Below are positions 4,706 through 63,456 of a stretch of 64,000 nt of DNA, piece after piece. The translations under genes were made by a program, and so were the position numbers. Every line of letters starts with the position of its first letter. Within the stretch, counting starts at the first letter, position 1. The stretch is from positions 55,239 to 119,238 of the forward strand of contig DATIGE010000038.1 in assembly GCA_035454885.1 (NCBI GenBank), in the 5' to 3' direction. Source of the DNA: a bacterium (GTDB lineage: Bacteria > UBA10199 > JACPAL01 > GCA-016699445). Below the pieces are notes generated by a model that was not told where the DNA came from, searched no databases, and saw only the letters and a list, made by a program, of their open reading frames with translations.

Positions 4706-5677
4706 TCAAAGCCACTTCTTCTTCCGGAAAAAGTAAATCAGCCCCCCCGCGACCGCCACCAAGAGCCCCAACGTCATGTAGTATCCGTGCTCCCATTCCA
4801 GCTCCGGCATGTGTTTGAAGTTCATCCCGTAGATTCCGGTGATGACGGTCAAGGGCAGCATGATGGCGGCGGAGATCGTCAGGAGTTTCATGACCTCGTT
4901 CGCCTTGTTGGAGGAGGTGAGCAGGTGGGCCTCGATCAGCCCGCCGATGGCGTCCCGGTTGGATTCGGTGCGGTCGGAGATCCTCACCAGGTGGTCCCGG
5001 ACGTTGGAAAGGTAGGGGATTGAGATGGGAAGGACCTCGTCGTAACCTTCCTTGACCAAGCTCATCAGCATGTCGATCTGCTGGGCACAGATTCGCTTCA
5101 AACGCGCCAAGTTCCTCTTAAGACTGAAGATTTCAGGCAGGAGGTTCTTTTCATGCTGTTCCAGGACGTTGTCCTCCAGGACGGCGATCCGGCGGTCGAA
5201 CTGGTCCAGGACGGGCATATAAAGGTTGACCATCTCGTCCAGGAGCCGGGCCATGAGGAAGTCCGCGCTCCGCATCGCAGACTTGGGGTTCCGCTCCGCC
5301 CGCTCCTTCGCCATGGCGGTGCTGCGGAGTTTGGGCTTGTGGTAGGTCACCAGGAAATTCGCCCCCAAAAACATGTCGAGCTCGGCCGTCTTGAATTCCC
5401 GGTCGGCCGACTCCGCCGGCAGTACCTCGTGAAAGATGAGAAAGATGTAATCGCCGTACTGGTCGATCTTGGGCTGGTGTCTCGGAGAGAGACAGTCGTC
5501 GATGGTCAGCGGGTGAAAGTTGAAGGCGACGTCCAGGAGTTCGGTCTCCTCCGGCGTCGGTTTTTCAATGTCCACCCACGTCACGCGTGTCTTGTCGGCG
5601 ACCAGGGCGCGGATCTCGGAGGCGTTCTTCACCTCCTGCATGCCGGAGGTCTCGCTGTAGGTGAAGATCGTCAGCAT
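4706..5677 (-). CDS. corA: Magnesium/cobalt transporter CorA
   Basis: 323 aa. C-terminal two TM helices with YGMNF (GMN) motif: IYGMNFKHMPELEWEHGYYMTLGLLVAVAGGLIYFFRKKKW. Confidence 0.85.
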   Translation of the reverse strand: MLTIFTYSETSGMQEVKNASEIRALVADKTRVTWVDIEKPTPEETELLDVAFNFHPLTIDDCLSPRHQPKIDQYGDYIFLIFHEVLPAESADREFKTAELDMFLGANFLVTYHKPKLRSTAMAKERAERNPKSAMRSADFLMARLLDEMVNLYMPVLDQFDRRIAVLEDNVLEQHEKNLLPEIFSLKRNLARLKRICAQQIDMLMSLVKEGYDEVLPISIPYLSNVRDHLVRISDRTESNRDAIGGLIEAHLLTSSNKANEVMKLLTISAAIMLPLTVITGIYGMNFKHMPELEWEHGYYMTLGLLVAVAGGLIYFFRKKKWL

Positions 5678-5787
5678 ACGGGGATTGTATCGATTTGTAG
5701 CAGACGCCCGGAGACCGGTCCATCCCTTTTGACGGGGAAAAAATTCAGCCCGAGTATTCGCATGTATACGGAACTTGCCGAACTTTC

Positions 5788-5871
5788 TTGACTAAAGCGG
5801 CTCATCCATGTTTTTTATGCCGCCGTAACCTGAGCATAATCAAAACCTAGCATCACGGAGGGGGTTCTAAG
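5788..5871 (+). promoter_or_regulatory. Candidate promoter and strong RBS upstream of first beta-helix array gene
   Basis: TTGACT at 5788-5793 with AT-rich stretch downstream (ttttttatgc, gcataatc). GGAGGGGG Shine-Dalgarno at 5857-5864, 7 nt before ATG 5872. Promoter assignment is tentative. Confidence 0.25.
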
Positions 5872-8151
5872 ATGCAAAATCAATCACGCCGTAACTCCAT
5901 TTTTTTCGCGCTGACCGCGCTGGCTCTTCCGTTCACAGCCTTAACGGCCGGCACCGCTCACGCGGATTGCACGACGCCCGTCACGCACACGGTGACGAGC
6001 CTGGCCGATGACGGCTCGGTGGGCACCCTCCGGCAGCTCATCAACTCGGCGACGGTCGAAGACTGCGACACCATCGACATCCCGGCCGGGACGATCGTCT
6101 ATGACGGGACGGGTCCAGGGCAGATTCAGATTCGAAAGAACATTACCCTCCACGGCGCCGGCGCCGGGACGACCATCATCGACGCCAACGGTCCCAATAC
6201 GGCCGATCGCGCCTTCGAGATCGATCCGGATGACACCGGGGTCGGCGTGACGATGGAAGGGGTTACGGTTCAGAATGGACTCCCCGGCACGGACGGCGGC
6301 GGTATTATCCTCTCAAATAACGGATCCCTGCGACTGATCGACAGCGCGGTGATCGGGAATGAGGCGAGCGGCAATGGCGGTGGAATCCACTTGGATGATG
6401 ACGGAAGTTCATTGACCCTCGATAACTCGGTCATTTCGCACAACATCGCTTCGAGCGACGGTGGCGGCATTTATTTCGCGGGATCGGGCACCTCCGGCAT
6501 TATTGCCAATGGGTCCGTCATTTCCGATAACGAAGCCGGGAGCGAGGGTGGTGGAATCTATCACAGCGACGGCCAGTTGGAGGTCTTCAACAGCAGGATC
6601 ATCGACAACAAGTCGGGCAGTGACGGCGGCGGCATTTCCAATGAATTCGCCGCGATTACCCTGGTCGATTCTGAGATCAGTGGAAATGTGGCGGATTCCA
6701 GCGGCGGCGGTATCTACAACAATTACACGACCTTCATCGATAACTGTGTCATTAGCAATAATAAGACAACCAGCGACAACGACGGCGGCGGCATTTACAA
6801 CGACGACCTCTTATACATTGTCAAGAGCACGGTCTCAGGAAACCGCGCCGAGGGCGACGCCGGCGGGATCTATAACAGTGAAGGGATCACGATCGAAGAC
6901 ACAACGATTTCCGACAACATCGCGGACGTCGATGGAGACAACACGGGTGGCTGCGATGGCGGTTGCGGCGGAGGCATCTACAATAATTTCACCCTGACGC
7001 TCATTCGGAGCATCGTGAGCGGGAATACCTCCAACGGTGAAGCCGACGGCGGCGGGATCTACCAGAATGACTATGCGATCATCGTCGATTCTCTCATAGC
7101 CAACAACACGACAACGAACGGCGACGGCGGGGGCATCAGTGCCTGCAGCGAGCCGACATCAATCCGCAACACGACAATCTCCGGCAATCAGGCGAAGGGT
7201 GAGAGCAATGATGCTAGCGGTGAGGATGCCGAGGGCGGCGGCATATACAACTGCGAGCCGATGGATATCATCAACTCCACGATCGTGAACAATTCCGCCG
7301 ACGGCAGCGGCGGCGGTATCTATAATGACGAAGAGTTGACCCTCAATAACGTCACCATTGCGTTTAATACGGCGGACGCGAACGAGGGCGGCCTTTCCTT
7401 GGGCGACGGCGGCGGTGTTTACAACAACGCGCGGGTCGTCATGGTCAATAGCATCATCGCGGGAAATGCAGATGTCGGTCCGGGCCCCGGCGCCCCGGAT
7501 TGCTTCAATGATTTCAGCGGCGTTTCAAATGAAATGACTGCGGGTGGTCCCAACCTTGTCCAGGACACCTCCAACTGCGAAATCACGGGTTTCAAGGAAT
7601 TGGTTGTGGAGGCCGATCCTCTCTTTGACGCGGCGGGATTGGCCGACAACAGCGGCACCTCTGCGGGCGATCCTGACAGTCTTCTAGTCATCCAAACGGT
7701 CTCGCTCCAAAGCGGGAGCCCGGCCGTTGACGCCGGCGATACAGGGGTCTGTGCGACAACCGACGAGAGAGGTGTCAGCCGTCCCCAGGGAGCCGAATGT
7801 GACCTGGGTGCCGTGGAGGTTGAAGGTGGGGCGGGCCCTATCGACGATGACGACGATGACGACGACGGCGTCCTGGACGTCGACGACAACTGTCCCTCCG
7901 ATGCGAACGCCGACCAGGCCGATACTGACGGGGATGGCGTCGGCGACGCCTGCGACAACTGCGTGGACGATGACAACGCGGATCAGGCCGACGCGGACGG
8001 CGACGGCATCGGCGACGCCTGTGATTCAGGAGGTGGCGGCGGCGGATGCTCGCTCATGACGGCCGGTTCTTCCGGAGGCGGCCTTGTGGGTCTCCTCTCT
8101 CTCATGACCGTAGCGGGGATGTTTATGATCCGAAAGAAATCGTTCAAAAAA
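5872..8151 (+). CDS. Array unit A: secreted CSLREA-like/PbH1 beta-helix repeat protein with TSP3 Ca-binding repeats and full C-terminal GGCSL-TM-RKK sorting tag (no stop codon; continues in-frame into unit B)
   Basis: Signal peptide MQNQSRRNSIFFALTALALPFTALTAGTAHA. N-domain [30 protein letters not shown]. About 15 repeats of [LIV]x[DN]SxIxxNxAxxxGGGIYN. LADNSGTSAGDPDS...GSPAVDAGD...RPQGAECDLGAVE. DDDDDDDG plus DxDxDGxGDxCDNC (thrombospondin type 3) repeats. Tail GGGGGGCSLMTAGSSGGGLVGLLSLMTVAGMFMIRKKSFKK. Part of 1491-aa ORF 5872..10347. Confidence 0.8.
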
Positions 8152-10347
8152 ATGGCGCTCTTGGGCGGATTGGTCCTGCCCTTGATTCCGGCGGTGGCCC
8201 AGGCCGACTGCACGACCCCGGCGACCTTCACGGTCACCAACTGTGGCGACGACGGCTCGGTGGGGACACTCCGCCAGTTGATCCACAGCGCCTCGGTTCA
8301 GGATTGCGACACGATCCAGATCCCGGCCTGTACGATCGTGCTCGACACGGCAGGGTCGACGTTCTTTGCCGAGACGGACGCGAACGCGGACCTGGATGTC
8401 GACAAGAGCATCACGATTCGGGGGGCAGGTCCCGGTAGCACGGTCATCGATGCCGACGGCGCTGTCACAGGCGCCCGCGTCTTTGAAATCGATCCGGACG
8501 ATACCGGCGTTGGCGTTACGTTCCAAGGCCTGACGATCACCGGCGGACAGCCGTCGTCCGGTGAGGGGGGCGGCATTCTGGTCAGCAATCACGGCGTGCT
8601 TACGGTGCTCGATAGCGCCGTTGACGGGAACGACTCGGATACGGTTGCCAGCTCCGCGGGGGGCGGTATCGCCCTGCCGGATGACGGTTCCCTGATTCTG
8701 ACCAACAGTTCGGTCTCCAACAACAAGTCGGGTGATAACGGCGGTGGCCTCTGGTTCTCGTGCGGCGACGCCACCTCGGGAATTATCTCCAACAGCGAAA
8801 TCGACGGAAATACGGCGGTCAGCAACGGCGGTGGCGGCGTCTACATCGACTGCGGAACATTGGAGGTGATCAACAGCCGGATCACGAACAATGTGTCGGA
8901 CGGAAACTATGGCGGCGGTCTTTGGAACGAATACGCTTCCGTGTATGTCCTCAATTCCGACTTTATCGGTAACCGTTCCGAAGGAAGCCAAGGCGGTGGC
9001 ATTGAAAACGACTACACCATCCTGATCGACAATTGCTTGATCCAAGACAACGTGGCGACGAGCTCCTCCGGTTATGGCGGGGGAGTCGCAAACGAGGACG
9101 GCGGGATCATGACCATCATGAACTCGACCATCGACGGTAATCGGGCCGACGACGACGGCGGCGGAATTTACAATGATTATTACGCCGTCAATATCATCAA
9201 TAGCACGATTTCCAACAATGTCGCCGATGCCGACGATGATGGATCCGGCAATGGCGGCGGCATCAGCAACGACGATTGCTATCACCTCTATGTGACCAAC
9301 AGCTTGATCATCAATAACCTGTCCAAAGGTGATATCGGGGGCGGCATTTATCAAGACGGATACGCCATCATCGATAACAGCACCATCGCCGGCAACGTTG
9401 CGGCAAACAATCACGGCGGCGGCATCTATACGGATTGCGAGCCCACGGTGATCCGTAACAGCACGATCTCGGGGAATGCGGCCCTCGGTGACGACGGTTC
9501 TGATGACAGCCAGGGCGGCGGTATTTGGAATACGTACCCCCTGCTCCTCACGAACACCACGATCGCGAACAACCGCGCCGACGGTCATGGCGGCGGAATC
9601 TACTCCGACGATGAAGGTACGAGCCTCAACAATGTCACGATGACCGGCAACGTCGCCGATGCCAATGAAGGTGGCCTCAGTGGCGGCGACGGCGGAGGCA
9701 TTTACAACATTGACCGCGTGGCGGTCACCAACAGCATCCTCGCGGGAAATCTCGACGCCAGCCCCGGCCATGAAGCCCCGGACTGCTACAACAACTTTAC
9801 CATTGACGGAGACAGTATCGAGATCCTTGGCCCCAACCTCATTCAAGACACATCCGGATGCGAACTTCAGGGCCAATTGAGTCTCCTCATAGAAGCGGAT
9901 CCCCTGTTCGCTCCCGCCGGGCTGGCCGACAACGGCGGTTCCGATCAGGGGGACGACCCCAAGGAGCCCGCCAAGACCATCGGTCTCCAAGCCGGGAGCC
10001 CGGCGATCAATGCGGGCGATAATGGGTCCTGCGAACCGACGGATCAGAACGGCGTTGCACGGCCCCAGGGTGACAATTGTGATCTGGGCGCAGTCGAAGT
10101 CTCGGCGGCGGTTGGCCCCGTCGACGACGAGGATGACGACGACGACGGCGTTCTCGACGTGGATGACAACTGCCCCGCTGACGCGAACGCCGACCAGGCC
10201 GATGCGGACGGTGACGGTGTCGGCGACGCCTGCGACAACTGCGTGGACGATGACAACGCCGACCAGGCGGATGCGGATGCCGATGGCATCGGTGACGCCT
10301 GCGATACGGACGGCGGCGGTAGCGGTGGTTGTTCTTTGATTCGATAA
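8152..10347 (+). CDS. Array unit B: paralogous beta-helix repeat protein, TSP3 repeats, truncated tag ending GGCSLIR-stop
   Basis: In-frame ATG at 8152 begins signal peptide [18 protein letters not shown] followed by [29 protein letters not shown]. Same repeat architecture as unit A. Ends ...[17 protein letters not shown] with TAA at 10345-10347. Confidence 0.75.
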
Positions 10348-10415
10348 ATGACATTGGGGGGCGGCCTCGCGGGGCCGTCCCCCTCCATTTGCTCACAACC
10401 CGAGGAGCGACTCTT

Positions 10416-12809
10416 ATGACCAAACGTCTCGGCATACTCTCAATCTTTGCCTCCTTTATCATCACGGGACTCGCCCTGAGCTCTCCAGCTACGGCAGCCA
10501 CCTGGACCGTGACCAACGCCGCGGATGACGGCTCCTCGGGGACCCTCCGGACGATCATCGAAAATCCGGCCGTCATCGACGGCGACGTGATCGTCTTCGA
10601 TGCCAGCGTCACCACCGTCACCCTGACCGATGACCTCGACATCAACAAGAGCATCACGATCCGCGGAAACGGCGCGGGGACAACGATCATCGACGCCAAT
10701 GGCGCGGTCACGAACGACCGGGCCATCGACATCGACGCCGATGACCGGGGGGTGCATGTCGCCATCGAGGCCCTCACGGTCCAGGGGGGGCGTGAGGACT
10801 CGGGAACCGGCGGCGGCATTCGGATTCGCAACTCCGGCTCCCTCCTTCTGAGGGATTGCGAGGTCAAGGACAACCAGGTGACTGCGGGATCGACCGACGG
10901 CGGGGGTATTGCCATCGAATCCGACGGCGCCTTGGTCGTCGAAAACTCCACGATCTCGGACAACGCGGCGACGCAGGACGGCGGCGGCATTTATGCAAAC
11001 GCCGGCTTCATCGAAATCAAGAACAGCTCGATCGAGAACAATATCTCAAGCTTCGGCGCTTCCACCACGGACGGGGACGGCGGCGGCATCTACTCGGAAG
11101 ATGGAACCCTTAATATCATCGATACCGCCATCAAAGGAAACATCGCCGGCGACAACGACAGCACGTTCGACGATCCGGAGGATACGAGCAGCGAGGGCGG
11201 CGGCATCTACACGACGAGCGATCAATCGGCCACGATCACGGGGTCCGGCGCCTGCGAGATCAGCGGCAACAAGTCCGGTGGTGATGGCGGTGGAATTCAT
11301 AACGGCGAACTCATGTCGATCGATAACTGCCTCATCGACGATAACCATGCGATGAATGACCACGATGGCGGCGGCATCTACACGGAAGATCTTCTGACCC
11401 TGACGGACAGCACCGTCAGCAACAACGACGCCGAGGACAACGGGGGCGGCATCTACAACAGCGGATCACTCACAATCTTGAACAGCACGATCTCGGGCAA
11501 CACGGCCGACGTGGACGCGGACCCCGATGGAAGCCAGGGCGGAGGCATCTACACGGATAACTACTTCTTCCTCAGTGGCAGCGTCGTCCGCGGCAATATC
11601 TCCGTGAGCGGAGAAGGCGGCGGCATCTACTCGGACAGCTCCAACTACATCATCATCGAATCGAGCGTCATCGCCGACAACGAAGCCAGCGATCACGACG
11701 CCGGCGGGATCTATAACACCGGCGCCCCGATGATCATCCGCAACAGCACGATCTCCGGAAACCGGGCCCTCGGAGATGAGAACGGCGGCGGGACGGACAG
11801 TATCGGCGGCGGCATCGTCTCCTATTATCCCCTCATGATGTCGAACACGACCGTGGCCAACAACGAGGCCGACGGCGACGGCGGCGGCATCTATGCCTCC
11901 GGCGGCGACGATCACTTCTTCAACAACGTCACTATTTCGGGCAACGTCGCGGACCAAGAGGGCGGGGCCGATGGCGTCGGCGGCGGAATCTACAACGACG
12001 CCACCGGCGTCACGATTACCAATTCGATCCTCGCCGACAACTCCGATGACGCAACCGCGCCCGACTGCTTCAGCGATTTCTCGGCTGGTGCGGTTTTTAC
12101 GTCCCTCAGCGCCAATCTCATCGAAGTTACGACCGGATGCGACGTGACCGGTTTGGGACTCGTCACCGGCGACCCGGCCTTGGCCGCCCTGGCGGACAAT
12201 GGTGGCCCGGACGCCGGCGACCCCGACAGCCCCGAGCCGATCCTTACCAGCGCCATCGCGGCCGGCAGCGCGGCCTTGGACGCGGGCGACAGCGGGACCT
12301 GCGAGTTGGATGACGAGCGCGGTACGAGCCGGCCTCAAGGTCCGGCCTGCGATTTGGGGGCCTTTGAGCTCTTCACCGATACGGACGGCGACGGCATCGA
12401 GGACAACTCGGACAACTGCCCGTCGACCGCCAACGCCGGACAGGAAGACGGCGATGCCGACGGCGTCGGAGACGTCTGCGACAACTGCGCGGACGATGCC
12501 AACGCCGATCAGGCCGACACCGACGGCGACGGAACGGGAGACGCCTGCGAGGCGGCCGTGACGCCTGCCACGGATACCGACGGGGACGGCGTCCCGGATT
12601 CGACGGATAATTGCGATGCCGTCGCCAACGCGGACCAGGCAGATGCAGACGCTGACGGGATCGGCGACGCGTGTGACGCGGAAGACGGCGGGGGCGGTTG
12701 CAGCCTCAACGCCGGTTCCACCGCCGCGCGCGGAGCCACGGAGGGTCTTTCAATGTTCCTGATGTCGATCCTGGCCTTTGCCGGATTATGCCTGTTCCGG
12801 GGTAGGCGC
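10416..12809 (+). CDS. Array unit C: paralogous beta-helix repeat protein with TSP3 repeats and full GGCSL-TM-RGRR sorting tag (no stop; continues into unit D)
   Basis: GAGGAG RBS 9-14 nt upstream of ATG 10416. Signal peptide [41 protein letters not shown]-domain. GGGIY repeats. Four TSP3 repeats. Tail [41 protein letters not shown]. First unit of 3089-aa ORF 10329..19598. Confidence 0.8.
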
Positions 12810-15068
12810 GTGGCCCGCCGTGCCCTTCCGGCCGCGGCGATCCTGCTCCTGTTTTCCAGCACCGGCCGAGCGGCGGACATAACCGTCACGAGCCTCCTGG
12901 ACGACGGTACACCAGGGACACTCCGCAATGCGATCGCGACCGCGCTGGACGGGGACGTGATCATCGTTCCGGCTGGAACCATCGTACTCACCCTGGCGGG
13001 CGGCGCCTTTGACGCCGACACATTCCCGGATTTGGACATTACGAAAACAATCACCATCCAGGGCGCCGGGGCCGGAAGCACCTTCATCGACGGCAGCGGC
13101 GACCTGACCGCCGACCGCGTCTTTCATATCGATCCCAACGACACCGGGGCGGGGGCGACCCTCGAAGGCATGACCATCCAGGCCGGAAAGCCTTCGGCCA
13201 ACGGCGGCGGCGTCCTCATCGACAACCGGGGCTCCCTGACCCTTGTCGACAGCGTCGTGAGCGACAACGAGACCAATGGAGCGGACGGCGGCGGCATTTA
13301 TCTGAATGAGGGCGCCTTGGCCGTGATCCGCTCGACCGTCCGGACCAACGTCGCCGACGGCAACGGCGGAGGCATCTACAATACCAGCGGCTCCCTGATC
13401 ATCTCCGATGGGAGTTCCGTCACCGGCAACATCGCGACCTCCTCCGGGGGAGGCATCTATACCGATGCGGGAGGGCTCGACGTCATCAACAGCCAAATCA
13501 ACAACAACGATGCGGACAGCGACGGCGGCGGTATCTACAACGGCTACACGGCCGTGGTCCTGAACAATTCGGATTTGAGCGGCAATACGGCCGAGGGCAA
13601 CGGCGGCGGCGTTTACAATGGTTATACGCTGCTGATCTCTGCCTCCACGGTCTCCCACAATCAGGCCCTGAATGACAGTGACGGCGGCGCTGTCTTCAAT
13701 GACGTGGAGCTCTGGGTCGAAGACAGTACCCTTTCCGACAATGGAGCCGATGACGATGGCGGCGCCATCTACAACAACTCAACGGCCGTGATCGAGCGCA
13801 GCACGATCGCCGACAATGCCACCGATATCGACTCCGACGGCTCCGAGGGCAATGGCGGCGGGATCAACACCGACGGTGATCTCTACGTGCGGGAGAGCAG
13901 CATCCTGAGAAACGTGGCCGGCGGCGGCGGCGTCGGGGGCGGTATCTCCGGCACGGGCAGTGAGTACACGGTCATTGATCGGAGCACCATTGCCGACAAC
14001 GTGGCCGCGGATAACGACGGCGGAGGCATCTATTTCGACAATTCCCAGACCATCATCACGAACAGCACCATCTCCGGCAACATCGCCCTGGGGGATCAGC
14101 ACAATTCGGCCTCAACCGACAGCCAGGGCGGCGGCATTTGGCACGACGAAGCGCTGACCATGACCAATTGTACGGTCGTCGGGAACCGTGCCGACGGCGA
14201 CGGCGGTGGGATCTACGTGAATTCCGACAGCGATGCGAACATCATCCTGAGCAACGTGACGATCACGGGCAATACCGCCGATGCCAACGAAGGAGGCTTC
14301 TCGGGCGGCGAAGGCGGAGGCGTCTTCAACGATCAGGGTGTGCTGCTCACCAATTCCATCATCGCCGGGAACACGGACGCCAGCTTCATTTCCACTTCCC
14401 CCGATTGCTACAGCAACTTTACCGGGGATGGTAACAACTTCACCGTCGTCGGACCGAATATCATCCAAAATCTGGATGGTTGCGAGGTCGTGGGAGACGT
14501 CTCAAGTCTCCGGAGCGACGATCCGCTCTTCGACCCGGCCGGCCTGGCCGACAACGGTGGCCCGACCCAGACCTTGGCCCTTCAGGCCGCGAGCCCTGCC
14601 TTGGACGTGGGTGACAACGGCTCCTGCGAACTCACCGACCAGCGCGGCACTGCGCGGCCCCAAGGCGCGGCTTGCGACTTGGGCGCCTTCGAATTGGAGC
14701 CCGACGCCGATGGCGACGGGATTCCCAATACTTTGGACAACTGCCCCGACGTCTCCAATGCGGACCAAACCGACACGGACGGCGACGGCGCGGGTGACGC
14801 CTGCGACACGGACGACGACGGAGACGGCGTCGCCGACGGGGTCGACAACTGCCCTCTGGTCGCCAACGCGGACCAGGCCGATGAAGACGGCGACGGGATC
14901 GGCGCCGCCTGCGACACCGATGACACCGGCGGCGGCACGACCGGCGGCGGAGGAAACGGTGGGGGATGCGGCCTAGTCGCGAGTGGTGATGCGAAGCCTC
15001 ATGTCACCTTCTGGGCCGTGTTCGCCGGCCTTGCGGCCTTAGCGGCGCTTCGGATGAGGAAAATCGCG
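12810..15068 (+). CDS. Array unit D: paralogous beta-helix repeat protein with TSP3 repeats and full GGCGL-TM-RMRK tag (no stop; continues into unit E); start codon uncertain (GTG)
   Basis: Signal-peptide-like (M/V)[20 protein letters not shown] followed by [24 protein letters not shown]. No in-frame ATG at the boundary, so GTG 12810 is proposed. Tail [39 protein letters not shown]. Confidence 0.65.
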
Positions 15069-17411
15069 ATGAAAAAAGGCTTTTGGATTTTGGCGCTGGC
15101 GTCATTGTTGCTTCCGTCCACCGCCGGTGCGGTTACCTACAACGTCGATCCAAACTCGATGGGTGCGGCGCCGACCGTTCCGGACGGAGATCCGGGGTCC
15201 CTGCGTTTCTATCTCGAGAACATCGCGCTCGCGGACGGCGACACCGTCGTCATCCCGTCAGGCACGGTCAATCTCGACTCAACCATCGGGGAGATTGAAA
15301 TCAGGCGGAACGTAACGATCCAGGGCGCAGGCGCTTCCGACACCATCATCGACGGAAACGGGGCCGGAGGCGGCGACGATCGCGTCTTCAGCATCGACCC
15401 GGACGACACCGGCATCGCGGTGACCATCTCGGGGGTCACCATCACGGGCGGCGATGTGGGCGCCAGCGGCGGCGGCATTCTCCTGAGCTGGACAGCGAGT
15501 CTGACCCTCATTGATTCGGTGGTCGACGGAAACCACTGCACCACCAGCGGTGGCGGCATCGATGTGGAGGATCAGGGAACCCTCGTGCTCATCAACAGCA
15601 CGGTCTCCAACAACACCGCGGACAACGACGGCGGCGGTATCTGGAGCGGCGAGGGGTTCGTCCATGTCATCGGCAACAGCGTCATTGGGCCCAATAATCA
15701 GGCCCTCGGCAGCTACGGCGGCGGCATTTACACTAGCGGCGGCGTCCTTCAGATCGTGGACAGCCAGGTCACGGGCAACCGCGCGGACGATTATGGCGGC
15801 GGGCTCTATCTCGACAGCAACCAAGATACCTCGGCCTATCTCCTGAATTGCGAGATCACCAACAACGCGACCATCAACGATGACGGCGGGGGGATCTATA
15901 ACGACAGCACCCTCTTCATCGACAACTGCCGGATCGCCGGAAACACAGCAGACGGAGACGGCGGCGGCATCGACAATAGTGAACATCTCACCCTAATCAA
16001 CAGCACCATCTTCGGCAATCACGCCAACGAAAGCGCGGGTGGTATCTACAACGACGACGGTCTCACAATCAGCAACTCGACCATTTCCGAGAATATCGCC
16101 GACTTTAACGACGACGGTTCCGGCGGTTACGGCGGCGGAATCTACAATAACGACTATCTTTCACTCTCCGACAGCTTGGTCAGCAACAATATTTCAATCA
16201 GCAACAACGGCGGCGGTATCTATTTCAACGATTACGCCGTTCTGGACGGAGTGGCCGTCACGGGCAACATCGCCCAAGACGACGACGGAGGCGGCCTTTA
16301 TGTCGACGGGGACCCGGTTGTCCTACGGAACTGCACCATTTCCGGAAACGCCGCCCGCAACAACAGCGACGGGGGTGGACTTTATACGACCTATGCGATG
16401 GATATCTCCAACACGACCATCGCCAACAATACGGCAGACGGCAACGGCGGCGGACTTTACAACGATTCCGGCGGTGACGGCATCCTTCTCAACAACGTGA
16501 CCATTACGGGTAACGAATCGGACGCGGATGCGGCCGGCGGTGGTGACGGCGGCGGATTCTATGACGACAACTCGGACGCCGTCATGATCAACACGATCAT
16601 CGCGGGCAATACGAGCCCCAACCTGGGGGATGACTGCATCAGCGATTCGACCGCCGGCGCGAGTACGTTGACCTCGGGCGGTCCCAACTTCGTCGGTGTC
16701 GTCGATACCGACTGCGACATTGAGGGCGACGATACGGCCGTCCTGACCGGAGACCCCGGCTTCGCCGCGGCCGGCCTGGCCGACAACAACGGTCCCTTGG
16801 TCGGAGACCCCGAGGCCCCGGTCCGGTTGCAGACGGTTGCCCTGGCCCCGGCCAGTGCCGCGGCCGAAGCGGGCGACAATGCAAGTTGCGCCTTGACCGA
16901 CGAGCGCGGCGTGACCCGGCCCCAGGGCGCCGATTGTGACCTGGGAGCGTTTGAACTGGTCGTGGATACCGACGGCGACGGGGTAAGCGACGACGTCGAC
17001 AACTGCCCCGCTGCATCCAACGCCGATCAGGCGGACGGTGATGCCGACGGTGTGGGCGACGTCTGTGACAACTGTCCGGCGGACGCCAACGCCGACCAGG
17101 CGGACGCGGACGGCGACGGGACGGGCGACGTCTGCGAGGCGCCTCCCGCGGTCTGCGGCAATGGAGACGTGGAGACCGGTGAAGGATGCGACGACGGCGA
17201 TACGGACGCGGGAGACGGTTGCAGCGACACCTGCAGCGTGGAAGCCGGTTTCACCTGTTCCGGGGAGCCCTCCGTCTGCACCGAAACGGCCGGGGACGGC
17301 GGAGGCTGCTCCCTGACGGACGGGGGCACATCGGCGGCTGCGACCGGCCCCTTGATGGCGATTTTCGCAGGTTTAGGGGTCCTGTTTCTCCGTCGCATGG
17401 GGAAAAAAACA
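15069..17411 (+). CDS. Array unit E: paralogous beta-helix repeat protein with TSP3 repeats, Myxococcus-type Cys-rich repeat and full GGCSL-TM-RRMGKK tag (no stop; continues into unit F)
   Basis: GAGGA RBS 8-12 nt upstream of ATG 15069. Signal peptide [39 protein letters not shown] repeats. TSP3 repeats. [35 protein letters not shown] (Myxo_disulf_rpt-like). Tail [39 protein letters not shown]. Confidence 0.75.
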
Positions 17412-19598
17412 ATGAAAAAGGCTCTGTTGGGCATGGGATTTCTGGCCTTGATGCTTCCGGCGGGCACGGTGGGTGCGGCGACCTTTACCGTGACGAAGAT
17501 CACGGACGACGCCCCGGATGGCAACTGCGACGCCGATTGCTCCCTGCGCGAGGCCGTTATTGCGGCCAATGCAAGCGTCGGAGTTGATGACGAAATCGTG
17601 ATTCCGGCCGGAATCTATCAGTTGACCATTGCCGGCGCGGGCGAGGACCTTGCCGCGACGGGCGATCTTGACATTACGGACAATGTGATCATCACCGGAT
17701 CCGGCTCTCTGACGACCGTCATTGAAGGCAATGGTGCCGCCACTGGAGATCGGGTCTTTCATATCGATGCCGGCGCGAGTCCCGGCGTTGCCGCGAGCGT
17801 CGTGATGACCGGCGTCACCATTCAAGGAGGCAATGTCAGTGGGAGCGGGGGTGGAATAAACATCGACAATCGCGGTTTCTTGAGGATCGTAGACAGCCTC
17901 GTCTTTGGAAATGACGCTACAGGCGATGGCGGCGGTATTCACTTGGACGATGACGGTTCGGGCCTAGTCGTGGAAAACTGTACCCTTTCCAATAATATCT
18001 CGGAGGACGATGGCGGAGCCATCAGCAACGACGACGGCTCCCTTCTCGTCAAGAACAGCACGATTGCTGAAAACAAGGCCGGCGATGACGGCAGCGGAAA
18101 CGGCGGCGGCATCTACAACAACGAGGACGGGGCCGAGATCATTGACACCCGGGTCGTTGACAACGAGACTGGAAGTTCGAGCGGCGACGGCGGCGGCATC
18201 ATGAATGACTACGGGGCGATGACCATCACCGGCAGCGGCAACTGCGAAATCAGCGGAAACCGCACCCTTGCCGGCGAGGGTGGGGGAGTCGACAACGAAT
18301 ACACCATGCTGATCGACAACTGCCTGATCGCCGAAAACCAGGCCCTGGACGACAACGACGGCGGCGGTGTCTACAACGACGATGAGATGGTGATCCTGAA
18401 CAGCACGATCAGCGGGAACCGCTCCGAAGACAGCGGCGGGGGCGTCTATAACTACTACCACATCACCATCGACAACAGCACGATCGCCGACAACATCGGA
18501 GACACCGACGAGGATGGAGGCGGCGGCGGCGAAGGCGGCGGCGGGATCCACTTCGACGACTGGAGCACGGTCAGTAACTCCATCATTTCCGGAAACACAC
18601 ATCTGACCGGAGAGGGCGGCGGTATCGACGCCTATTACTACTTCGTCCTCGATAACTGCCTCATTACCGGCAACACCGCGGCGGACAATGACGGCGGCGG
18701 GATTGCGACCGATTACCCCGGCGTCATCCGGAACACTCTGATCAGCGACAATCGTGCCCTTGGGGATCAGAATAATTCGGCCACGGACGACAGCAATGGC
18801 GGCGGCATTGCGACAGACTACCCGCTCCAGATCATCAACACGACCATTGTCAACAACCAGGCGGATGGCCATGGCGGCGGAATTTGGAGTGATGATAAGC
18901 TGGACTTGAACAACGTGACGATCGCCTTCAACACGTCGGACGCGAATGAGGGAGGTTTTACGGGCGGCGACGGCGGCGGAATTTACAACGATGATGACAT
19001 GGTATTCAGCAATACCCTCATTGCCGGCAATACCGACGCGAGCCCCGGCGCCGAGGCCCCGGATTGCCTCAACGACTTCACGGGTGCCGGGAACAGCATG
19101 GCTTCGAGCGGGCCCAACATAGTCCAAGACCCGTCTGGTTGTGAGATCACCGGTGATCCGACGGGCGTCCTGAATGTGGACCCCCTCTTTGATCTGGCGG
19201 GTCTGGCGGACAACGGCGGTCGGTTCGCCGGCGACGAGCCGACCTCGGTGGTCCAAAGCCTCTCCCTGCAGGCCGGGAGCCCCGCGATTGACGCCGGTAA
19301 CAACGCCACCTGCGACCCGACCGACCAGGTCGGTACCGATCGTCCCGTCGGCGACGCCTGTGACCTGGGCGCCTTGGAGGTTACAACCCCCGCGGCCCCC
19401 CCGGTTCCGCCGGTCGTGCCTGCTGTTTGTGGAAACGGCGACGTGGAGACCGGTGAGGGCTGCGATGATGGCGACACCACTGCGGGCGACGGTTGCAGCG
19501 CTACCTGTGTGGTCGAAGATGGCTTTACCTGCACGGGTGAACCGTCGGTCTGTACCGAGGAGTCGGGAGGCAGCGGCGGTTGCAGCTTGATTAGATAA
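17412..19598 (+). CDS. Array unit F: paralogous beta-helix repeat protein with canonical CSLREA motif, Myxococcus-type Cys-rich repeat, no TSP3 repeats, truncated tag GGCSLIR-stop
   Basis: ATG 17412. Signal peptide [23 protein letters not shown]-domain ...[31 protein letters not shown] repeats. Ends ...[56 protein letters not shown] with TAA 19596-19598. Confidence 0.75.
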
Positions 19599-19604
19599 TA
19601 CGAA

Positions 19605-19676
19605 GGGCGAACACGAGGTTCGCCCCGACACTATCTCGAAGGCGGCCCTCGAAAGAGGGTCGCCTTTTTTGTTTTG
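19605..19676 (+). terminator. Tandem hairpins / rho-independent terminator after beta-helix array
   Basis: gggcgaacacgaggttcgccc hairpin, then ggcggccctc-gaaa-gagggtcgcc stem followed by TTTTTTGTTTT. Confidence 0.6.
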
Positions 19677-19678
19677 CC

Positions 19679-20986
19679 ATGCTACCCCCCGAATTCATGA
19701 TGTCTTACCTTCAAAAACAGGACCCCGACATCCACGCCGCCATCCACGGCGAGACGGAGCGCCAGGAATTCACCCTGGAAATGATCGCGTCCGAGAACTT
19801 CGTCTCGCGGGCCGTTTTGGAGGCGGCCGGGAGCGTGATGACGAACAAATACGCCGAGGGCTACCCCGGTAAGCGCTATTACGGCGGCTGCGAGTTCGTG
19901 GACCGGGCGGAGGACCTGGCGCGGGACCGGGTCAAGAGGCTCTTTGGCGCCGAATACGCCAACGTCCAGCCGCACTCCGGCTCCCAGGCCAACATGGGCG
20001 TGTATTTCACGTTCCTCAAGCCAGGAGATAAGGTCATGGGGATGAACCTGTCCCATGGCGGCCACCTGACGCACGGATCACCCGTCAATTTTTCCGGTCA
20101 ACTTTATAATTTTGCCGCCTACGGGGTGGACCCCAAGACGGGGCGGATCGACTACGACCGGTGCGCGGATCAGGCCAAGAAGGAACGTCCCAAGATGATC
20201 ACGGTGGGAGCCTCGGCCTATTCACGCAACATCGACTACAAGAAGTTCCGGGAGATCGCGGATTCCGTCGGGGCCTTTCTCTTCGCCGACATCGCCCACC
20301 CGGCGGGACTGATCGCGAAGAAGCTCCACAACGACCCCGTGCCGCATTGCCATGTGGTGACCTCGACGACGCACAAGACCCTCCGGGGACCCCGCGGCGG
20401 CTTGATCCTGATCGGCAAGGACTACGAGAACCCCTTCGGCCTCGTCGCGCCCAAATCGGGGCGCGTGAAGAAGATGAGCGAACTGATCGACTCGATGATC
20501 ATCCCGGGCATCCAGGGCGGGCCGCTCATGCACATTATCGCCGCCAAGGCGGTGGCCTTTGAGGAGGCCCTGCAGCCGGCGTTCGAGGACTACGCCCGCC
20601 AGATCATCAAGAACGCGCAGGCCCTCGCCCAAACGCTGGTGGACCTGGGCTACAACCTGGTCTCCGGCGGGACGGACAATCACCTGATGCTGGTGGACTT
20701 GAGAAACAGGAAGGTCACCGGCAAGGACGCCCAAGAGGCCCTCGAAGAGGCCGGGATCACGGTCAACAAGAACGCGGTCCCCTTCGACGACCAGAGTCCT
20801 CTCATCACCAGCGGCATCCGGATCGGCACCGCGGCCCTCACGACGCGGGGTATGAAGGAACCGGAGATGAAGACGATCGGGGGTTGGATCCATACGGTCC
20901 TGTCTGACCTCAAGAATGAAAAGGCGAAGCGCGAGGTGAGGGAGAGTATCCGCGCGCTCTGCAAGAAATTCCCCCTGTATTTGTGA
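19679..20986 (+). CDS. glyA: Serine hydroxymethyltransferase
   Basis: 435 aa. ...[42 protein letters not shown]...[14 protein letters not shown]... PLP Lys motif. True start may be the second or third Met (MSYLQ...) at ~19700. Confidence 0.9.
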
Positions 20987-60040: not shown

Positions 60041-61272
60041 CGTTTCCTTGGTTCTTCTGGCTCTTCGCGGCCTGTTACACGGTCCATTTGGTCTGGGAGA
60101 CGGCGCTCACGCTCCTCAACAACGCCCACATCCGCAGGCACGCCGGCGAGATCCCCGAATACTTTCGGGGCAAGATCGAGCCGGATCGTTACCGGAAGGC
60201 CGTCGCCTACAACCTGGAGAAGGCGCGCTTCGGCCTCGCCGTGCGGGGTTATGACGTCGCCGTGACCTGGGCGATACTCCTGAGCGGCGTCCTGGAAAGG
60301 CTCGACGGCTGGGTCGGTCTCCGCGGGATTCCCCACTCGATCCTCTACTGCGGCGCCGTGGCCTTAAGCCTGACGGCCTTGCGCCTCCCGGTGTCGCTCT
60401 ATTCCCACTTCGTGTTGGAGGAGAAATACGGGTTCAACAAGATGACGGGGAAAACCTTCGTCCTGGACCTGCTGAAGGGAATCGCGCTCGGCGCGGCGCT
60501 GGGCGGGCCGATCCTGGCGCTCGTCTTCTGGCTCTACCAAAAGGCCGGCGGCCTCTGGTGGCTTTGGGCCTTCCTGGGCGTCTACGGCTTCGAGTTCGTC
60601 ATGGCGGCGGTCTATCCGACCCTCCTGGCCCCGATCTTCAACAAGTTCACCCCGCTGCCCGATGGCTCGCTGAAGGACGCGATCACGGCGCTGGCGAAAA
60701 AAATCCGCTTCAAGATGTCCGGCATTTTCACGATCGACGGCTCGCGCCGATCGGCGCATTCGAACGCCTACTTCGCCGGGATGGGCCGGATGCGGCGGAT
60801 CGTCCTTTTCGACACGCTCCAGAAGCAGCTGACCGAGCGGGAGATCATCGCCGTCCTGGGCCATGAGATGGGCCACAACAAGCTCCGGCACATCCAAAAG
60901 ATGCTGGTCATGGGTTTCGCGACCTCCCTCGCCGGTTTCTGGATCTTGTCGCTCTTGATCGGTTGGGAGCCTCTTTACGCCGCCTTCAACGCCGGCGCCC
61001 CGGCCCCGCACAAGGCGCTGGTGATCGTCTCGCTCTTCGGAAGCCACTTTACGTTCTTCCTCAAGATCCTGACCAACGCCCTCTCGCGGCGCTACGAGTA
61101 CGCCTCGGACCTCTTTTCGGTCAAGGTGGTGGGGGACCGCGAGGCGATGGCGTCGTCCCTGGTCGCGCTCTCGCGGGAGAATCTCTCGAACCTCACGCCG
61201 CATCCGCTCTTCAGCTTTTATCACTACACGCACCCGACGACGCTCGAGCGGGTCAGGGCGCTTCAGGCATGA
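60031..61272 (+). CDS. M48-family zinc metalloprotease (Ste24/CAAX-protease-1 homolog), multi-TM
   Basis: 413 aa. N-terminal TM helices. HEMGHNKLRH (HExxH) ... C-terminal ...THPTTLERV. 10-nt overlap with helicase. Confidence 0.85.
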   Translation: MGMTFPWFFWLFAACYTVHLVWETALTLLNNAHIRRHAGEIPEYFRGKIEPDRYRKAVAYNLEKARFGLAVRGYDVAVTWAILLSGVLERLDGWVGLRGIPHSILYCGAVALSLTALRLPVSLYSHFVLEEKYGFNKMTGKTFVLDLLKGIALGAALGGPILALVFWLYQKAGGLWWLWAFLGVYGFEFVMAAVYPTLLAPIFNKFTPLPDGSLKDAITALAKKIRFKMSGIFTIDGSRRSAHSNAYFAGMGRMRRIVLFDTLQKQLTEREIIAVLGHEMGHNKLRHIQKMLVMGFATSLAGFWILSLLIGWEPLYAAFNAGAPAPHKALVIVSLFGSHFTFFLKILTNALSRRYEYASDLFSVKVVGDREAMASSLVALSRENLSNLTPHPLFSFYHYTHPTTLERVRALQA

Positions 61273-61279
61273 TAGAGTC

Positions 61280-61564
61280 TTATTTGATGCGAATATCCAA
61301 ACGCCGCCCAAAAACAGTAGCAAACTTGATTAAAGAATCGACGCCGACATTTGCCTTCGGATCGCTGATCATTCGAACCACTTGCGATTTGCTGGTTCCC
61401 ATGAGGCGGGCGACGTGACGAATGGAGAGATGAGATTTCGTCATAATCTGTCGCAAGCGCTCAACGAGACGAAGGCGGCTCTTTTCTTTTTGAAAAAGAG
61501 TCTCAAACTTGGTTTTCCGGAGGTCTTTCTCCAAATCCTTATGAAAATCTCCACCTGTTCTCAT
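61280..61564 (-). CDS. HTH (XRE/HigA-like) antitoxin
   Basis: 94 aa. HTH LSIRHVARLMGTSKSQVVRM. Immediately downstream of toxin gene. Confidence 0.7.
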   Translation of the reverse strand: MRTGGDFHKDLEKDLRKTKFETLFQKEKSRLRLVERLRQIMTKSHLSIRHVARLMGTSKSQVVRMISDPKANVGVDSLIKFATVFGRRLDIRIK

Positions 61565-61574
61565 GTTGCACCCC

Positions 61575-61886
61575 TTACGATCTCATTCTTGAATAAGCCG
61601 TCTCCAACTCGCGGCTAGGCGTCTTGTCGGACTTTTTTCGAAACGCATGCAGCAGAACGATCATCCCCTCATGGTAACAATAGAAAATTCGATGTGCGCC
61701 CGGCCTCAGTTCAAACAGACCGGGGTAGCCGGCGATTTTCTTCGCATGGGGTTCCTTGAGCGTGACCGCCTCCGAGAGGTAGTCGATCAGCGCCTTGACC
61801 TTGGCCCGCTCACGATCTTGCAAAGCCTCCAAATAATCGCGAACAGGAAGATCCCCACGGGGCGTTTGATAATAAGTGACCTTCAT
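61575..61886 (-). CDS. Type II toxin-antitoxin RelE/ParE-superfamily toxin (HigB/Gp49-like)
   Basis: 103 aa. ...YLEAL...KIAGYPGLFELRPGAHRIFYCYHEGMIVLLHAFRKKSDKTP matches phage Gp49/HigB-type toxin core. Toxin upstream of antitoxin as in higBA. GTACCcgtaaataGGTAC palindrome just upstream. Confidence 0.7.
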   Translation of the reverse strand: MKVTYYQTPRGDLPVRDYLEALQDRERAKVKALIDYLSEAVTLKEPHAKKIAGYPGLFELRPGAHRIFYCYHEGMIVLLHAFRKKSDKTPSRELETAYSRMRS

Positions 61887-62011
61887 AAGAAGTGTACCCG
61901 TAAATAGGTACGAACGTCAACCCGAGACTGTTGAGTGCAAATGCCTTGCCATGCCGGCTGAGCGGCGGTGGCGGGGCGAGGGTATGAATTTCGGTCTCAA
62001 GGGTATGGAAA

Positions 62012-62458
62012 TTAGGTCGATTCGCGAAACCGTATGACGACTTCGATCCTCCGGCCGCTCGGGTGCTCCGTGCGGAAGAAGCGGAAGACGAGCTCGCGCG
62101 GGTTTTTTTCGAACCTCGGGTCGGGGTTCTGGAGGAGGGCGATCCCCTCGAACTGGGCCAGGTTGACGAGGCGGAGAAATTCCTTCGGATCGGGCGGGGC
62201 CTGAGTCCAGCCCTTGAGCCTCGCCAGCGCCGCGAAATCCTTCTCGCCATGGATCCCGTAGGTCGTCCCGTCCTCGTCCATGAGGACGCGCTTCATCCCC
62301 GTGCCCGGATGCGCCTTGGGGTTGCAGGCGGTGATGACGGTGAGTCCCAACGGCGCCGGCTCCTCGCGGACGGAGACCTCGACCGGATGCCGATACTCCG
62401 CAAGCACCAAGTCCTTGAGCGCCTCGCCGACCTTTTTGATTTTACGGGTGAGTTTCAC
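62012..62458 (-). CDS. Hypothetical protein (start uncertain: GTG 62458 or internal ATG)
   Basis: ORF 62012..62545 overlaps the upstream lipoprotein gene. Shortened to first plausible start after that stop. No SD seen. Confidence 0.3.
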   Translation of the reverse strand: MKLTRKIKKVGEALKDLVLAEYRHPVEVSVREEPAPLGLTVITACNPKAHPGTGMKRVLMDEDGTTYGIHGEKDFAALARLKGWTQAPPDPKEFLRLVNLAQFEGIALLQNPDPRFEKNPRELVFRFFRTEHPSGRRIEVVIRFREST

Positions 62459-62460
62459 CT

Positions 62461-63456
62461 TTAGGGAAGGATCGGCCCGCTCTGGACCACCTCGAAGGCC
62501 GAGCCGGGGACGTCCTTCAATTGGTTCAGGTCTTCGTCGTCCCACCGGGAATCCGTCGAGCCCGAGATGTACCAGTTGGAGCCGTTGTCGGCGACGATGA
62601 GGCCGTATTTCTTGAGCGCCTCCAAGATCACGCGCGCGGCGCCCGTGAAACCCGAGACGTCGTAGGAGGCCTTGAGCCGGAGGCGCAGCCCCATCGGCGG
62701 GGCGTCGGGGTCGGTCTCGTCGCTCGCGAAGTGCGTGGCCGGGTGGATGTAGCCTCGCTGTGTGACGGAAAAGGTGACGCGGAGGGCGTGGTGGATCGAA
62801 CCCTCCCCGACGGCCTCCTGGTAGCGCACGAGGCCGGCCAAGATCGGGAGCCCCGCGGCGTCCGCGGAGGTCCAGCCGTCGGGTCTGAGGTCGTTCGACG
62901 TCAAGTCGAAGACCGCCCCCGAGGCGCAGTCCCAGCCGGACCCATTCTTCTCCGCGACGTACATCTCGTAAAGAACGCAGCCGTCCTGATCGATCACCAG
63001 GACGTGTCCATCGCCGCCGCCCTCCACGTCCGCGTCGGGCGGGATCGGGTAGGGGCCCGGGTCGCTCTCGTCGCCAAAGTCCGTAAAGGTGATGGGGACG
63101 AGAGGCTGATCGCCGCCCACCACTTCATAGGGAATCCCGTAGTCGGGGTTTGAGCCGAAGTCCGGGTGCAGGAAGTCGCCGCCGTTCGCCAGGATAAAGG
63201 CGATGTAACCGTCGGAGTTGGGATCGAGGGGGTCGCCCGAGACGTCCCGGTTCCAGGGATTGTCCGGCGGAAAGACCGTGCACTCGGTCGTGATGTTTGC
63301 GGGGTCGGTGGGGGAGGCCGGTCCTCCCGTGGTCCCGCCCGTCGTGCCGCCGCCCGAGGCGGCCGTGCCGGAGCAGCCGGCCGCCCCGCCGCCGACGGAT
63401 GCGGCGGGTACCCAAAGGAGGGCCGCCGCGATGAGGCCGGCAACTTTTTTTCTCAT
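62461..63456 (-). CDS. Hypothetical lipoprotein with Gly/Thr-rich linker
   Basis: Start MRKKVAGLIAAALLWVPAASVGGGAAGCSG (lipobox). Linker GGGTTGGTTGGPASPTDP. Asp-rich globular domain. Confidence 0.6.
   Translation of the reverse strand: MRKKVAGLIAAALLWVPAASVGGGAAGCSGTAASGGGTTGGTTGGPASPTDPANITTECTVFPPDNPWNRDVSGDPLDPNSDGYIAFILANGGDFLHPDFGSNPDYGIPYEVVGGDQPLVPITFTDFGDESDPGPYPIPPDADVEGGGDGHVLVIDQDGCVLYEMYVAEKNGSGWDCASGAVFDLTSNDLRPDGWTSADAAGLPILAGLVRYQEAVGEGSIHHALRVTFSVTQRGYIHPATHFASDETDPDAPPMGLRLRLKASYDVSGFTGAARVILEALKKYGLIVADNGSNWYISGSTDSRWDDEDLNQLKDVPGSAFEVVQSGPILP

Follow-up and report, generated by a model that had tools for sequence, protein, structure and literature searches.

A 64,000-nucleotide (nt) stretch of contig DATIGE010000038.1, which derives from a metagenome-assembled genome (MAG) and is called the window below, carries an array of six homologous units, A to F, of about 730–800 amino acids (aa) each, distributed according to the translation across two adjacent open reading frames (ORFs) on the forward strand. 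ORF1 contains units A and B, ORF2 contains units C to F, and at four unit boundaries (8151/8152, 12809/12810, 15068/15069 and 17411/17412) the reading frame continues from one unit into the following one without a stop codon. Comparison with related arrays demonstrated a single conserved reading frame through these junctions, a fixed junction pattern and the dispensability of internal start codons. We propose, with a probability of roughly 0.6, that each ORF gives rise to a Sec-exported precursor, in which signal peptidase I would cut at internal sites and a myxosortase-like protease would trim a cysteine motif.

A conserved open frame at the unit junctions

Each of the four junctions in the window is open in a single frame, and the remaining two frames are closed by stops. 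A previous reading of this DNA from its letters alone (hereafter, the sequence-only reading) had reported four stop-less, in-frame junctions and considered them unlikely by chance, and both statements were borne out. The check it had named, inspection of orthologous arrays in relatives, was run and revealed the same stop-less junctions in seven other assemblies (L001, L002/L003, L004, L005 with L124, L086, L087 and L123, from NCBI, JGI, ENA and Logan). The fused junctions total 26 in eight independent assemblies (4 in the window and 22 elsewhere), and 22 of the 26 were tabulated in detail. No in-frame stop was found in 22 junction segments of 60 codons each (>1300 codons), and the alternative frames of the same segments contained 0.042 stops per codon, corresponding to a chance probability of ~0.08 per segment. 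Homology searches identified an NCBI MAG protein (P0001) that is 100% identical to ORF1 and two ORF1 orthologues at ~70% identity covering it end to end. The L001 and L002/L003 loci are syntenic with the window (corA, array, glyA) and have the same layout of two plus four units.

All 22 tabulated junctions exhibited a fixed order of GGC, a linker, a transmembrane (TM) helix, a Lys/Arg loop and a second hydrophobic stretch. The GGC is invariant in 19/19 aligned units and is followed by S/A/G/T and then by L/M. The linker comprises 6–17 aa rich in Gly, Ser and Thr, and the first hydrophobic helix (TM1) comprises 18–25 aa. The loop lacks Asp and Glu at every junction and contains 3–6 Lys/Arg residues at 21 of the 22, and the second hydrophobic stretch, which is shorter than TM1, ends with Ala at −1 and A/S/G/V at −3 in all 22. 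This small-x-Ala directly precedes the conserved mature N-terminus (ATxTVT, DCTTP, VTYNVDP and similar). The junction layout is that expected of a stop-transfer anchor, a positive-inside loop and a cleavable signal peptide, and the sequence features of polyproteins resolved by signal peptidase (stop-transfer TM, basic loop and internal signal peptide) were thus found at 22/22 junctions. Furthermore, unit types that begin with a genuine N-terminal signal peptide in some genomes follow an internal one elsewhere, and the predicted cut site relative to the mature end is identical, as in AAFA/DCTTP of the protein P0308 and AQA/DCTTP of unit B in the window (the slash marks the cut). The invariant Cys, the TM helix and the basic cluster, present together in units A, C, D and E and at all tabulated junctions, resemble the Cys-containing MYXO-CTERM and JDVT-CTERM sorting signals, though they score below every sorting-signal cutoff; we refer to them as tags.

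Synonymous sites are saturated in the comparison of the window with L001/L002 (proportion of synonymous differences, pS, 0.67–0.76), and the unit bodies have a nonsynonymous rate (dN) of ~0.16–0.22 and a ratio to the synonymous rate (dN/dS) of ~0.1 or less. The junction segments change faster in protein (proportion of nonsynonymous differences, pN, up to 0.54, with several indels), with the frame kept in all of them and no stop gained.

The start codons and Shine–Dalgarno (SD) sites at the junctions behave differently from those of genuine genes. The Met/Val start that the sequence-only reading assigned to each downstream unit exists in the window and is not conserved in its relatives. The A/B junction of L001 reads KK|AAVLTG and contains no start, no start codon precedes the n-region of the D/E junction in L001 or L002, and the C/D junction of L002 offers TTGs only, all within hydrophobic stretches. 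Both junctions of L004 lack a convincing start (there is one possible GTG), as does one junction of L005, and two of the three junctions of L086 have no nearby start codon. SD motifs are missing at most junctions and present only where Arg codons create them, whereas every genuine gene start in the arrays is preceded by GGAGG, GAGGAG or AGGAG at the correct distance. The GAGGA at D/E to which the sequence-only reading had drawn attention is real as sequence, but it is made of Arg/Lys codons (CGG ATG AGG AAA) and is incidental. Because internal starts and SD sites are not conserved, the downstream units appear to depend on read-through. The suggestion that ribosomes read through into multi-unit precursors with TM hairpins thereby gained strong comparative support, from the maintenance of the fusions in eight assemblies, the dispensability of internal starts and SD sites and the small-x-Ala at 22/22 junctions.

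Two A7 runs (Lys AAA AAA), unusual at 62% GC, lie at 8146–8152 and 17403–17409 inside the predicted cytoplasmic loops of A/B and E/F. A one-base slippage deletion at the A/B run would lead to a stop 12 codons on and so produce unit A by itself, its TM tag complete. Slippage at these runs as a source of separate products was set aside, the runs being absent from L001 and L002.

Split gene ends, packaging and the surrounding locus

The B/C boundary is the only one in the window with a stop, and the TAA, 68-nt spacer and GAGGAG described by the sequence-only reading are all in place (Table 1). Of the two polyprotein sizes it gave, 1491 aa stands and 3089 aa does not. The mechanically called ORF2 (10329–19598, 3089 aa) begins at a TTG at 10329 and overlaps the end of ORF1 by 19 nt in a different frame, and its start is most likely the ATG at 10416, giving 3060 aa, because both the orthologues and the SD site indicate this codon.

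Table 1. Features of the array in the window; TM helices, signal peptides and cut sites (slash) are predictions.
Feature	Coordinates	Strand	Details
ORF1, two-unit precursor A+B, 1491 aa	5872–10347	+	SD GGAGG ~9 nt 5′ of start
Signal peptide, N-terminus of unit A	5872–5964	+	TAHA/DCTTP
Unit A	5872–8151	+	Beta-helix, Chlam_PMP repeats, choice-of-anchor Q domain, thrombospondin-type-3-like repeats
A/B fused junction	8041–8205	+	GGCSL and linker 8041–8073; TM1 8074–8130; loop RKKSFKK 8131–8151; internal signal peptide 8152–8205; cut AQA/DC
Unit B	8152–10344	+	Ends in TM-less GGCSLIR (10324–10344); TAA 10345–10347
ORF1–ORF2 spacer, 68 nt	10348–10415	+	12-bp GC-rich stem-loop 10356–10383; SD GAGGAG 10402–10407
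ORF2, four-unit precursor C+D+E+F, 3060 aa	10416–19598	+	Start ATG 10416
C/D fused junction	12693–12872	+	GGCSL and linker; TM1 12744–12797; loop RGRRVARR 12798–12821; internal signal peptide to 12872, ending GRA/ADITV
D/E fused junction	14961–15131	+	GGCGL and linker; TM1 15003–15050; loop RMRKIAMKK 15051–15077; internal signal peptide to 15131, ending AGA/VTYNV
E/F fused junction	17301–17477	+	GGCSL and linker; TM1 17352–17390; loop 17391–17420; internal signal peptide to 17477, ending VGA/ATFTV
Unit F	17412–19595	+	CSLREA N-terminal domain, beta-helix, choice-of-anchor Q, myxo-type Cys-rich repeat
Unit F end, short tail	19575–19595	+	GGCSLIR, then TAA
Intrinsic terminator	19638–19667	+	13-bp stem and T-run, just 3′ of F; sole strong one in region

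Across the arrays, a split boundary takes the form GGCSL(I/V)R-stop (once GGCSLIPHP-stop), followed by a 26–68-nt spacer with a strong SD, an ATG and a signal peptide, whereas a fused boundary consists of GGCSL, linker, TM, loop and signal peptide. The short form occurs at 16 of the 18 gene ends counted, and a full TM tag before a stop occurs at one, that of the first gene of L087 (...LMIALFAMAGLVMLRKQTSK-stop). The GGCSLIR ends of B and F are written in different codons (tgt tct ttg att cga and tgc agc ttg att aga, respectively). On these counts, the short tail is the family's normal C-terminus, and the TM helix with its basic loop is found almost only where another unit follows; in the window, each of the four TM-containing tags precedes another unit, of 728–781 aa. 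The view that units end in a TM helix and a basic cluster thus fails for B and F, which have the Cys motif only. These patterns suggest that, where units are fused, the TM helix and basic cluster may have as much to do with membrane topology as with sorting, and TM1 would make topological sense because the next signal peptide can act only once the chain is back at the cytoplasmic face. The short GGCSLIR tail had no match to any curated NCBIfam model.

A stem-loop follows the ORF1 stop in all three orthologues (10356–10383 in the window, 14495–14570 in L001 and 9843–9914 in L002), with 12–13 bp, a minimum free energy of −32 to −33 kcal/mol, z-scores of −3.1 to −5.7 and no T-run. Its position is the same and its stem sequence differs between the window and L001/L002, and the flanks TAAATGACATTG and ACAACCCGAGGAG are conserved. 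Possible roles of the stem-loop are mRNA processing or stabilisation, or attenuation that sets the ORF1:ORF2 ratio. A similar hairpin was seen 3′ of a stop in L124 (~9950–9985).

The packaging of units varies among the lineages as 2+4, 4, 4+4, 2+2 and 4+1+1. The array genes encode 1497 and 3020 aa in L001, 1499 and 3019 aa in L002/L003, and 3031 and 2887 aa in L087; L086 has a single gene of 3020 aa. A cut unit in L004 is followed by genes of 1433 and 1419 aa, and a cut gene in L005 by one of 1432 aa. In L124, which belongs to the MAG that also contains L005, a 2858-aa gene precedes two single-unit genes of 706 and 700 aa. Unit number and packaging were observed to differ in every genome examined, apart from the 2+4 layout shared by the window, L001 and L002. 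In the unit tree, each of A to F forms an orthologous triplet, with deep branches between positions, and the 2+4 fusion hence predates the three species. The CSLREA-type unit closes the four-unit ORF of the window, opens the pairs of L004 and L005 and takes the third of four places in L087, indicating that units have been reshuffled between lineages. The plasticity by gene fusion and fission that the sequence-only reading had offered as an option is thus seen between lineages, in both the packaging and the switching of positions by unit types.

The true stand-alone units come from L124 and not from L123, in which a frameshift at ~640–1116 (frame 1 to 3) caused the gene caller to restart at an internal ATG and to report a false single-unit protein, P0306. 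This protein was rejected as a stand-alone unit: the L123 junction is fused and open, and it is the upstream unit that is frameshifted.

By its serine hydroxymethyltransferase (SHMT) marker, this uncultured, deltaproteobacteria-like organism falls among unclassified MAGs, and the closest relatives with a name are "Deltaproteobacteria bacterium" entries at ~82% identity. Two relatives at 85% and 82% SHMT identity (L088, 9449–11287, and L089, 10001–11287, respectively) have no array, and rpiB directly adjoins glyA in L088, which makes the array a lineage-specific island that the clade has gained or lost in places. In the 120 best word-based homologues, hairpin junctions (two hydrophobic stretches around a basic loop) were confined to clade members and one further protein, P0014, and a profile search of 1.84 billion proteins added, among the new representatives listed, only three further clade proteins with hairpins. 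P0014 (L085 1299–6305, Logan DRR333436) is an independent three-unit fused protein with CSLREA/choice-of-anchor Q units; its tag differs (PG-S-ACGGTLG, TM, RRR), and its last unit retains the full TM tag before the stop. The P0014 gene adjoins a sigma-70-family (Sigma70_r2) gene on the opposite strand. A contig scan of genomes with unit F returned mostly matches to a widespread Cys-rich 'ETGEGCDD' repeat, and the only unit-length relative in it, L006, has another architecture and no hairpin. A contig scan of metagenomes with ORF2 returned 33 loci with generic thrombospondin type 3 (TSP3) motif matches, and the junction was found in 0/33.

All six units match the choice-of-anchor Q model (NCBIfam NF041518; 47.2–82.1 bits against a curated cutoff of 25) and contain Chlam_PMP (PF02415) repeats, and several have significant Beta_helix matches. 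TSP3-like repeats occur in every unit except F, the myxobacterial Cys-rich acidic repeat in E and F, and the CSLREA domain at the N-terminus of F. Despite the PF02415 repeats, no autotransporter domain was matched in units A to F, in contrast to the chlamydial Pmp-type autotransporters.

The array lies between housekeeping genes, with TetR, rpiB and corA upstream and glyA, an NAD-dependent epimerase-family gene and mutY downstream. Units A to F look like one transcription unit, because one strong terminator follows F, none lies inside the array and promoter-like sites are no more frequent than in shuffled sequence. An Rfam scan of 5000–20500 gave no match. In L087 only, a HepT-like/nucleotidyltransferase (MNT-type) toxin–antitoxin pair lies between the array and glyA (9018–9994). 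At ~60300–62500 of the window, GC content dips (0.586 in the 60–62 kb bin) and several short ORFs have atypical codon-position GC; with two small adjacent minus-strand ORFs at 61280–61886, this region could be a small mobile or toxin–antitoxin-like insert.

A proposed export and processing pathway and its alternatives

Considering these results, we propose the following scenario. Each long ORF would yield a single precursor that passes through SecYEG stage by stage. The signal peptide at its N-terminus would export the first beta-helix unit, the TM helix after GGC(S/A)L would stop transfer with the short Lys/Arg loop remaining in the cytoplasm, and the next hydrophobic segment, acting as an N-in/C-out signal peptide, would restart translocation and export the following unit, a cycle repeated up to four times. 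Signal peptidase I would then cleave after the small-x-Ala of each internal signal peptide and separate the units, leaving the upstream unit tethered to the inner membrane by its C-terminal TM helix and what remains of the signal peptide. Cleavage just after the invariant Cys may follow, probably once the Cys is lipidated, by an intramembrane protease of the myxosortase/CPBP type that recognises the Cys motif. Gene-terminal units present the motif as a 5-residue tail, C-S-L-I-R-COOH, that might be removed by the same trimming, such that all units might mature to the same ...GGC end. A more specific version, in which one Cys motif is trimmed in both its forms, the long one with a TM helix and the short periplasmic GGC-SLIR-COOH, by a CaaX-protease-like enzyme within a true bacterial secretory polyprotein pathway of Sec re-initiation and signal peptidase I cleavage, is put forward tentatively and seems doubtful to us.

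Several observations weigh against the proposed scenario. We infer the membrane topology, both cleavages and any lipidation, that is, all the processing steps, from sequence. The tags score 16.5, 8.4 and 12.9 bits on the MYXO-CTERM model (TIGR03901.2, curated cutoff 20 bits), and two tags of the window have no match, while the internal tag of a myxobacterial protein from locus L020, used as a positive control, scores 20.7 bits. The scanned membrane ORFs of the window and the Pfam-annotated flanks around the related loci yielded no CPBP/myxosortase gene (NF040914 core). Neither the tag nor a CSLIR end was found in unrelated ORFs of the window and the scanned clade loci (~200 kb), and a proteome-wide sorting system is thus not established. 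The GGCSLIR tail has no TM helix, which makes access by a membrane enzyme hard to explain. Four ATG or GTG codons at the window junctions and the SD-like GAGGA at D/E allow for some internal initiation. An AlphaFold2 model of the A/B junction was uninformative (mean predicted local distance difference test score 43.5) and was not used.

The main rival, which we regard as unlikely, is that the ORFs encode uncleaved giant multi-pass inner-membrane proteins, with two or four periplasmic beta-helix domains anchored by TM hairpins. The conserved frame and the hydrophobic–basic–hydrophobic hairpins fit such proteins equally well, and no locus-linked protease gene was found in the window and related loci. 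However, a permanent hairpin would need no small-x-Ala, which is nevertheless present at 22/22 junctions and at the very position where stand-alone orthologues are predicted to be cut. The second hydrophobic stretch is signal-peptide-like and shorter than TM1, the invariant GGC motif would be left without a role, and choice-of-anchor Q proteins are typically surface proteins, all of which count against uncleaved proteins.

It is less probable still that the units are made separately by internal initiation, the missing stops being a tolerated quirk of tight coupling and read-through a minor by-product. The four downstream units of the window do begin with ATG or GTG, with the GAGGA at D/E placed 7 nt upstream, and in myxobacteria traA and traB overlap by 4 nt and are coupled in this way (PMC3325183). 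Against this stand the many orthologous junctions without a start before the n-region (in L001, L002, L004, L005 and L086) and the absence at most junctions of the SD site that is strong at every genuine gene start; moreover, ribosomes arriving from upstream would read through anyway where there is no stop codon. Sequencing or assembly errors, or a decaying pseudogene, could be suspected from the MAG origin of the sequence and from the one frameshift within a unit of L123, but this explanation is effectively refuted by the same junctions in eight independent assemblies from different projects, by the low dN/dS in unit bodies at saturated dS and by the lack of in-frame stops in the junction codons. 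As judged from these comparisons, the stop-less design is not an assembly artefact.

Relation to known sorting tags and polyproteins

The CPBP protease MrtX cleaves MYXO-CTERM in a Cys-dependent manner, and lipidation of the Cys followed by export through the type II secretion system has been proposed (Guo, Haft & Wall, mBio 2025, PMC11980579). The tags of the present array share with this pathway an invariant Cys in a Gly-rich signature, a TM helix and a basic cluster, and their passengers resemble myxobacterial ones in having TSP3 repeats, myxo_disulf_rpt and MtsC-like features. They differ in reading GGCSL instead of GCGC, in mixing Lys and Arg in the basic cluster and in their position: four of the six tags in the window, namely those with a TM helix, are internal, and the two terminal ones have no TM helix, whereas MYXO-CTERM is C-terminal by definition. 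The lineage is no recognised member of the Myxococcota or Bradymonadales, and a myxosortase was not found in the available sequence.

Single internal tags have precedents. MXAN_5598 of Myxococcus xanthus contains an internal MYXO-CTERM in an "atypical configuration", probably resulting from gene fusion; its N-terminal part was proposed to be still processed and sorted, and evidence that mid-protein tags work was cited (PMC11980579). Like MXAN_5598, the ORFs described here have a tripartite Cys tag within the ORF and a second exported module after it, which identifies them as internal sorting-tag fusions. MXAN_5598 has one junction between unrelated partners, whereas the ORFs of the present clade have up to three each, all between homologous units and in a design fixed across the clade, and the tags fail the MYXO-CTERM model. 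Two ORFs from Myxococcaceae and Archangium MAGs (L020 4329–13700 and L036 3–6761, both on the plus strand), which turned up by chance in a genome scan, encode a large adhesin with MYXO-CTERM (GGGCGC...TM...RRR) whose frame continues into a segment resembling a signal peptide and then into a TraB-like beta-barrel/OmpA protein. Because these ORFs are probably its orthologues, the MXAN_5598-type fusion appears to be conserved across genera. In Haloferax volcanii, a central PGF-CTERM-like tripartite structure of HVO_0405, described as a "strain-specific domain fusion" of two formerly independent genes, is cleaved by the archaeosortase ArtA (PMC7157517), and this provides experimental proof that a tripartite signal works away from the C-terminus. 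HVO_0405 differs in being an archaeal Tat substrate with another tag and enzyme and only one junction, and the text read describes no downstream cleavable signal peptide.

In the full-text searches, polyproteins with internal signal peptides were found in eukaryotic viruses only. In the polyproteins of flaviviruses and in the Gn/Gc polyproteins of bunyaviruses, stop-transfer TM helices and internal signal peptides take turns along the chain, and lumenal cleavage by the signal peptidase of the host frees the ectodomains as separate proteins. Those viral envelope polyproteins depend on the eukaryotic endoplasmic reticulum, Sec61 and the signal peptidase complex, whereas the present system is bacterial. 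A bacterial polyprotein, the FbcH cytochrome b/c1 precursor of Bradyrhizobium japonicum, is reportedly split after an internal signal-peptide-like segment located behind membrane helices (work by Thony-Meyer and colleagues from about 1991). FbcH differs in having one cleavage between a polytopic membrane protein and a periplasmic cytochrome, and is not known to have a sorting tag or serial repetition.

The short tail invites comparison with eukaryotic CaaX/Rce1 processing, in that its Cys lies near the C-terminus and is followed by a few mostly aliphatic residues, and Rce1 has homologues among bacterial enzymes, namely those that cut sorting tags of the Cys type (PMC11980579). The resemblance goes no further than analogy: the tail (CSLIR or CSLVR) has its Cys at the fifth position from the C-terminus, in signal-peptide-bearing, presumably periplasmic proteins, whereas that of a CaaX box is fourth and cytosolic, and no prenylation or lipidation machinery was identified here. 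If the more specific version involving a CaaX-protease-like enzyme is true, the short tail would represent a kind of C-terminal sorting or lipidation box so far unrecognised in bacteria, CaaX-like and without a TM helix.

Compared with the literature searched, the new elements are the conserved serial use of the tag, its pairing with cleavable signal peptides and the either-or of short and long tails. Sorting tags are defined and searched for as C-terminal elements: the criteria of Haft (2023) demand a C-terminal position and leave internal or fused tags unmentioned, and the NCBIfam models follow the same definition, whereas this clade routinely uses the tag as an internal connector. If the proposed processing is right, annotation is affected as well: surveys based on such tags will miss internal tags and the short GGCSLIR form, and gene callers output either giant "choice-of-anchor Q" proteins or, as in the case of P0306, products restarted at an internal ATG. 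The alternation between a short tail with a stop and a long tail with a TM helix raises the question of what the TM part of a sorting tag is needed for.

With tag and signal peptide as a connector, what would be an operon of surface proteins becomes a single translated chain, which suggests that bacteria can make secreted polyproteins as some animal viruses do. If the proposed processing is true, the arrays would provide natural substrates with distinct product sizes for the study of Sec re-initiation, internal signal peptidase I cleavage and CPBP-type proteases. They would represent a bacterial counterpart of viral envelope-polyprotein biogenesis, offering fixed stoichiometry and co-localised export of large adhesin-like proteins.

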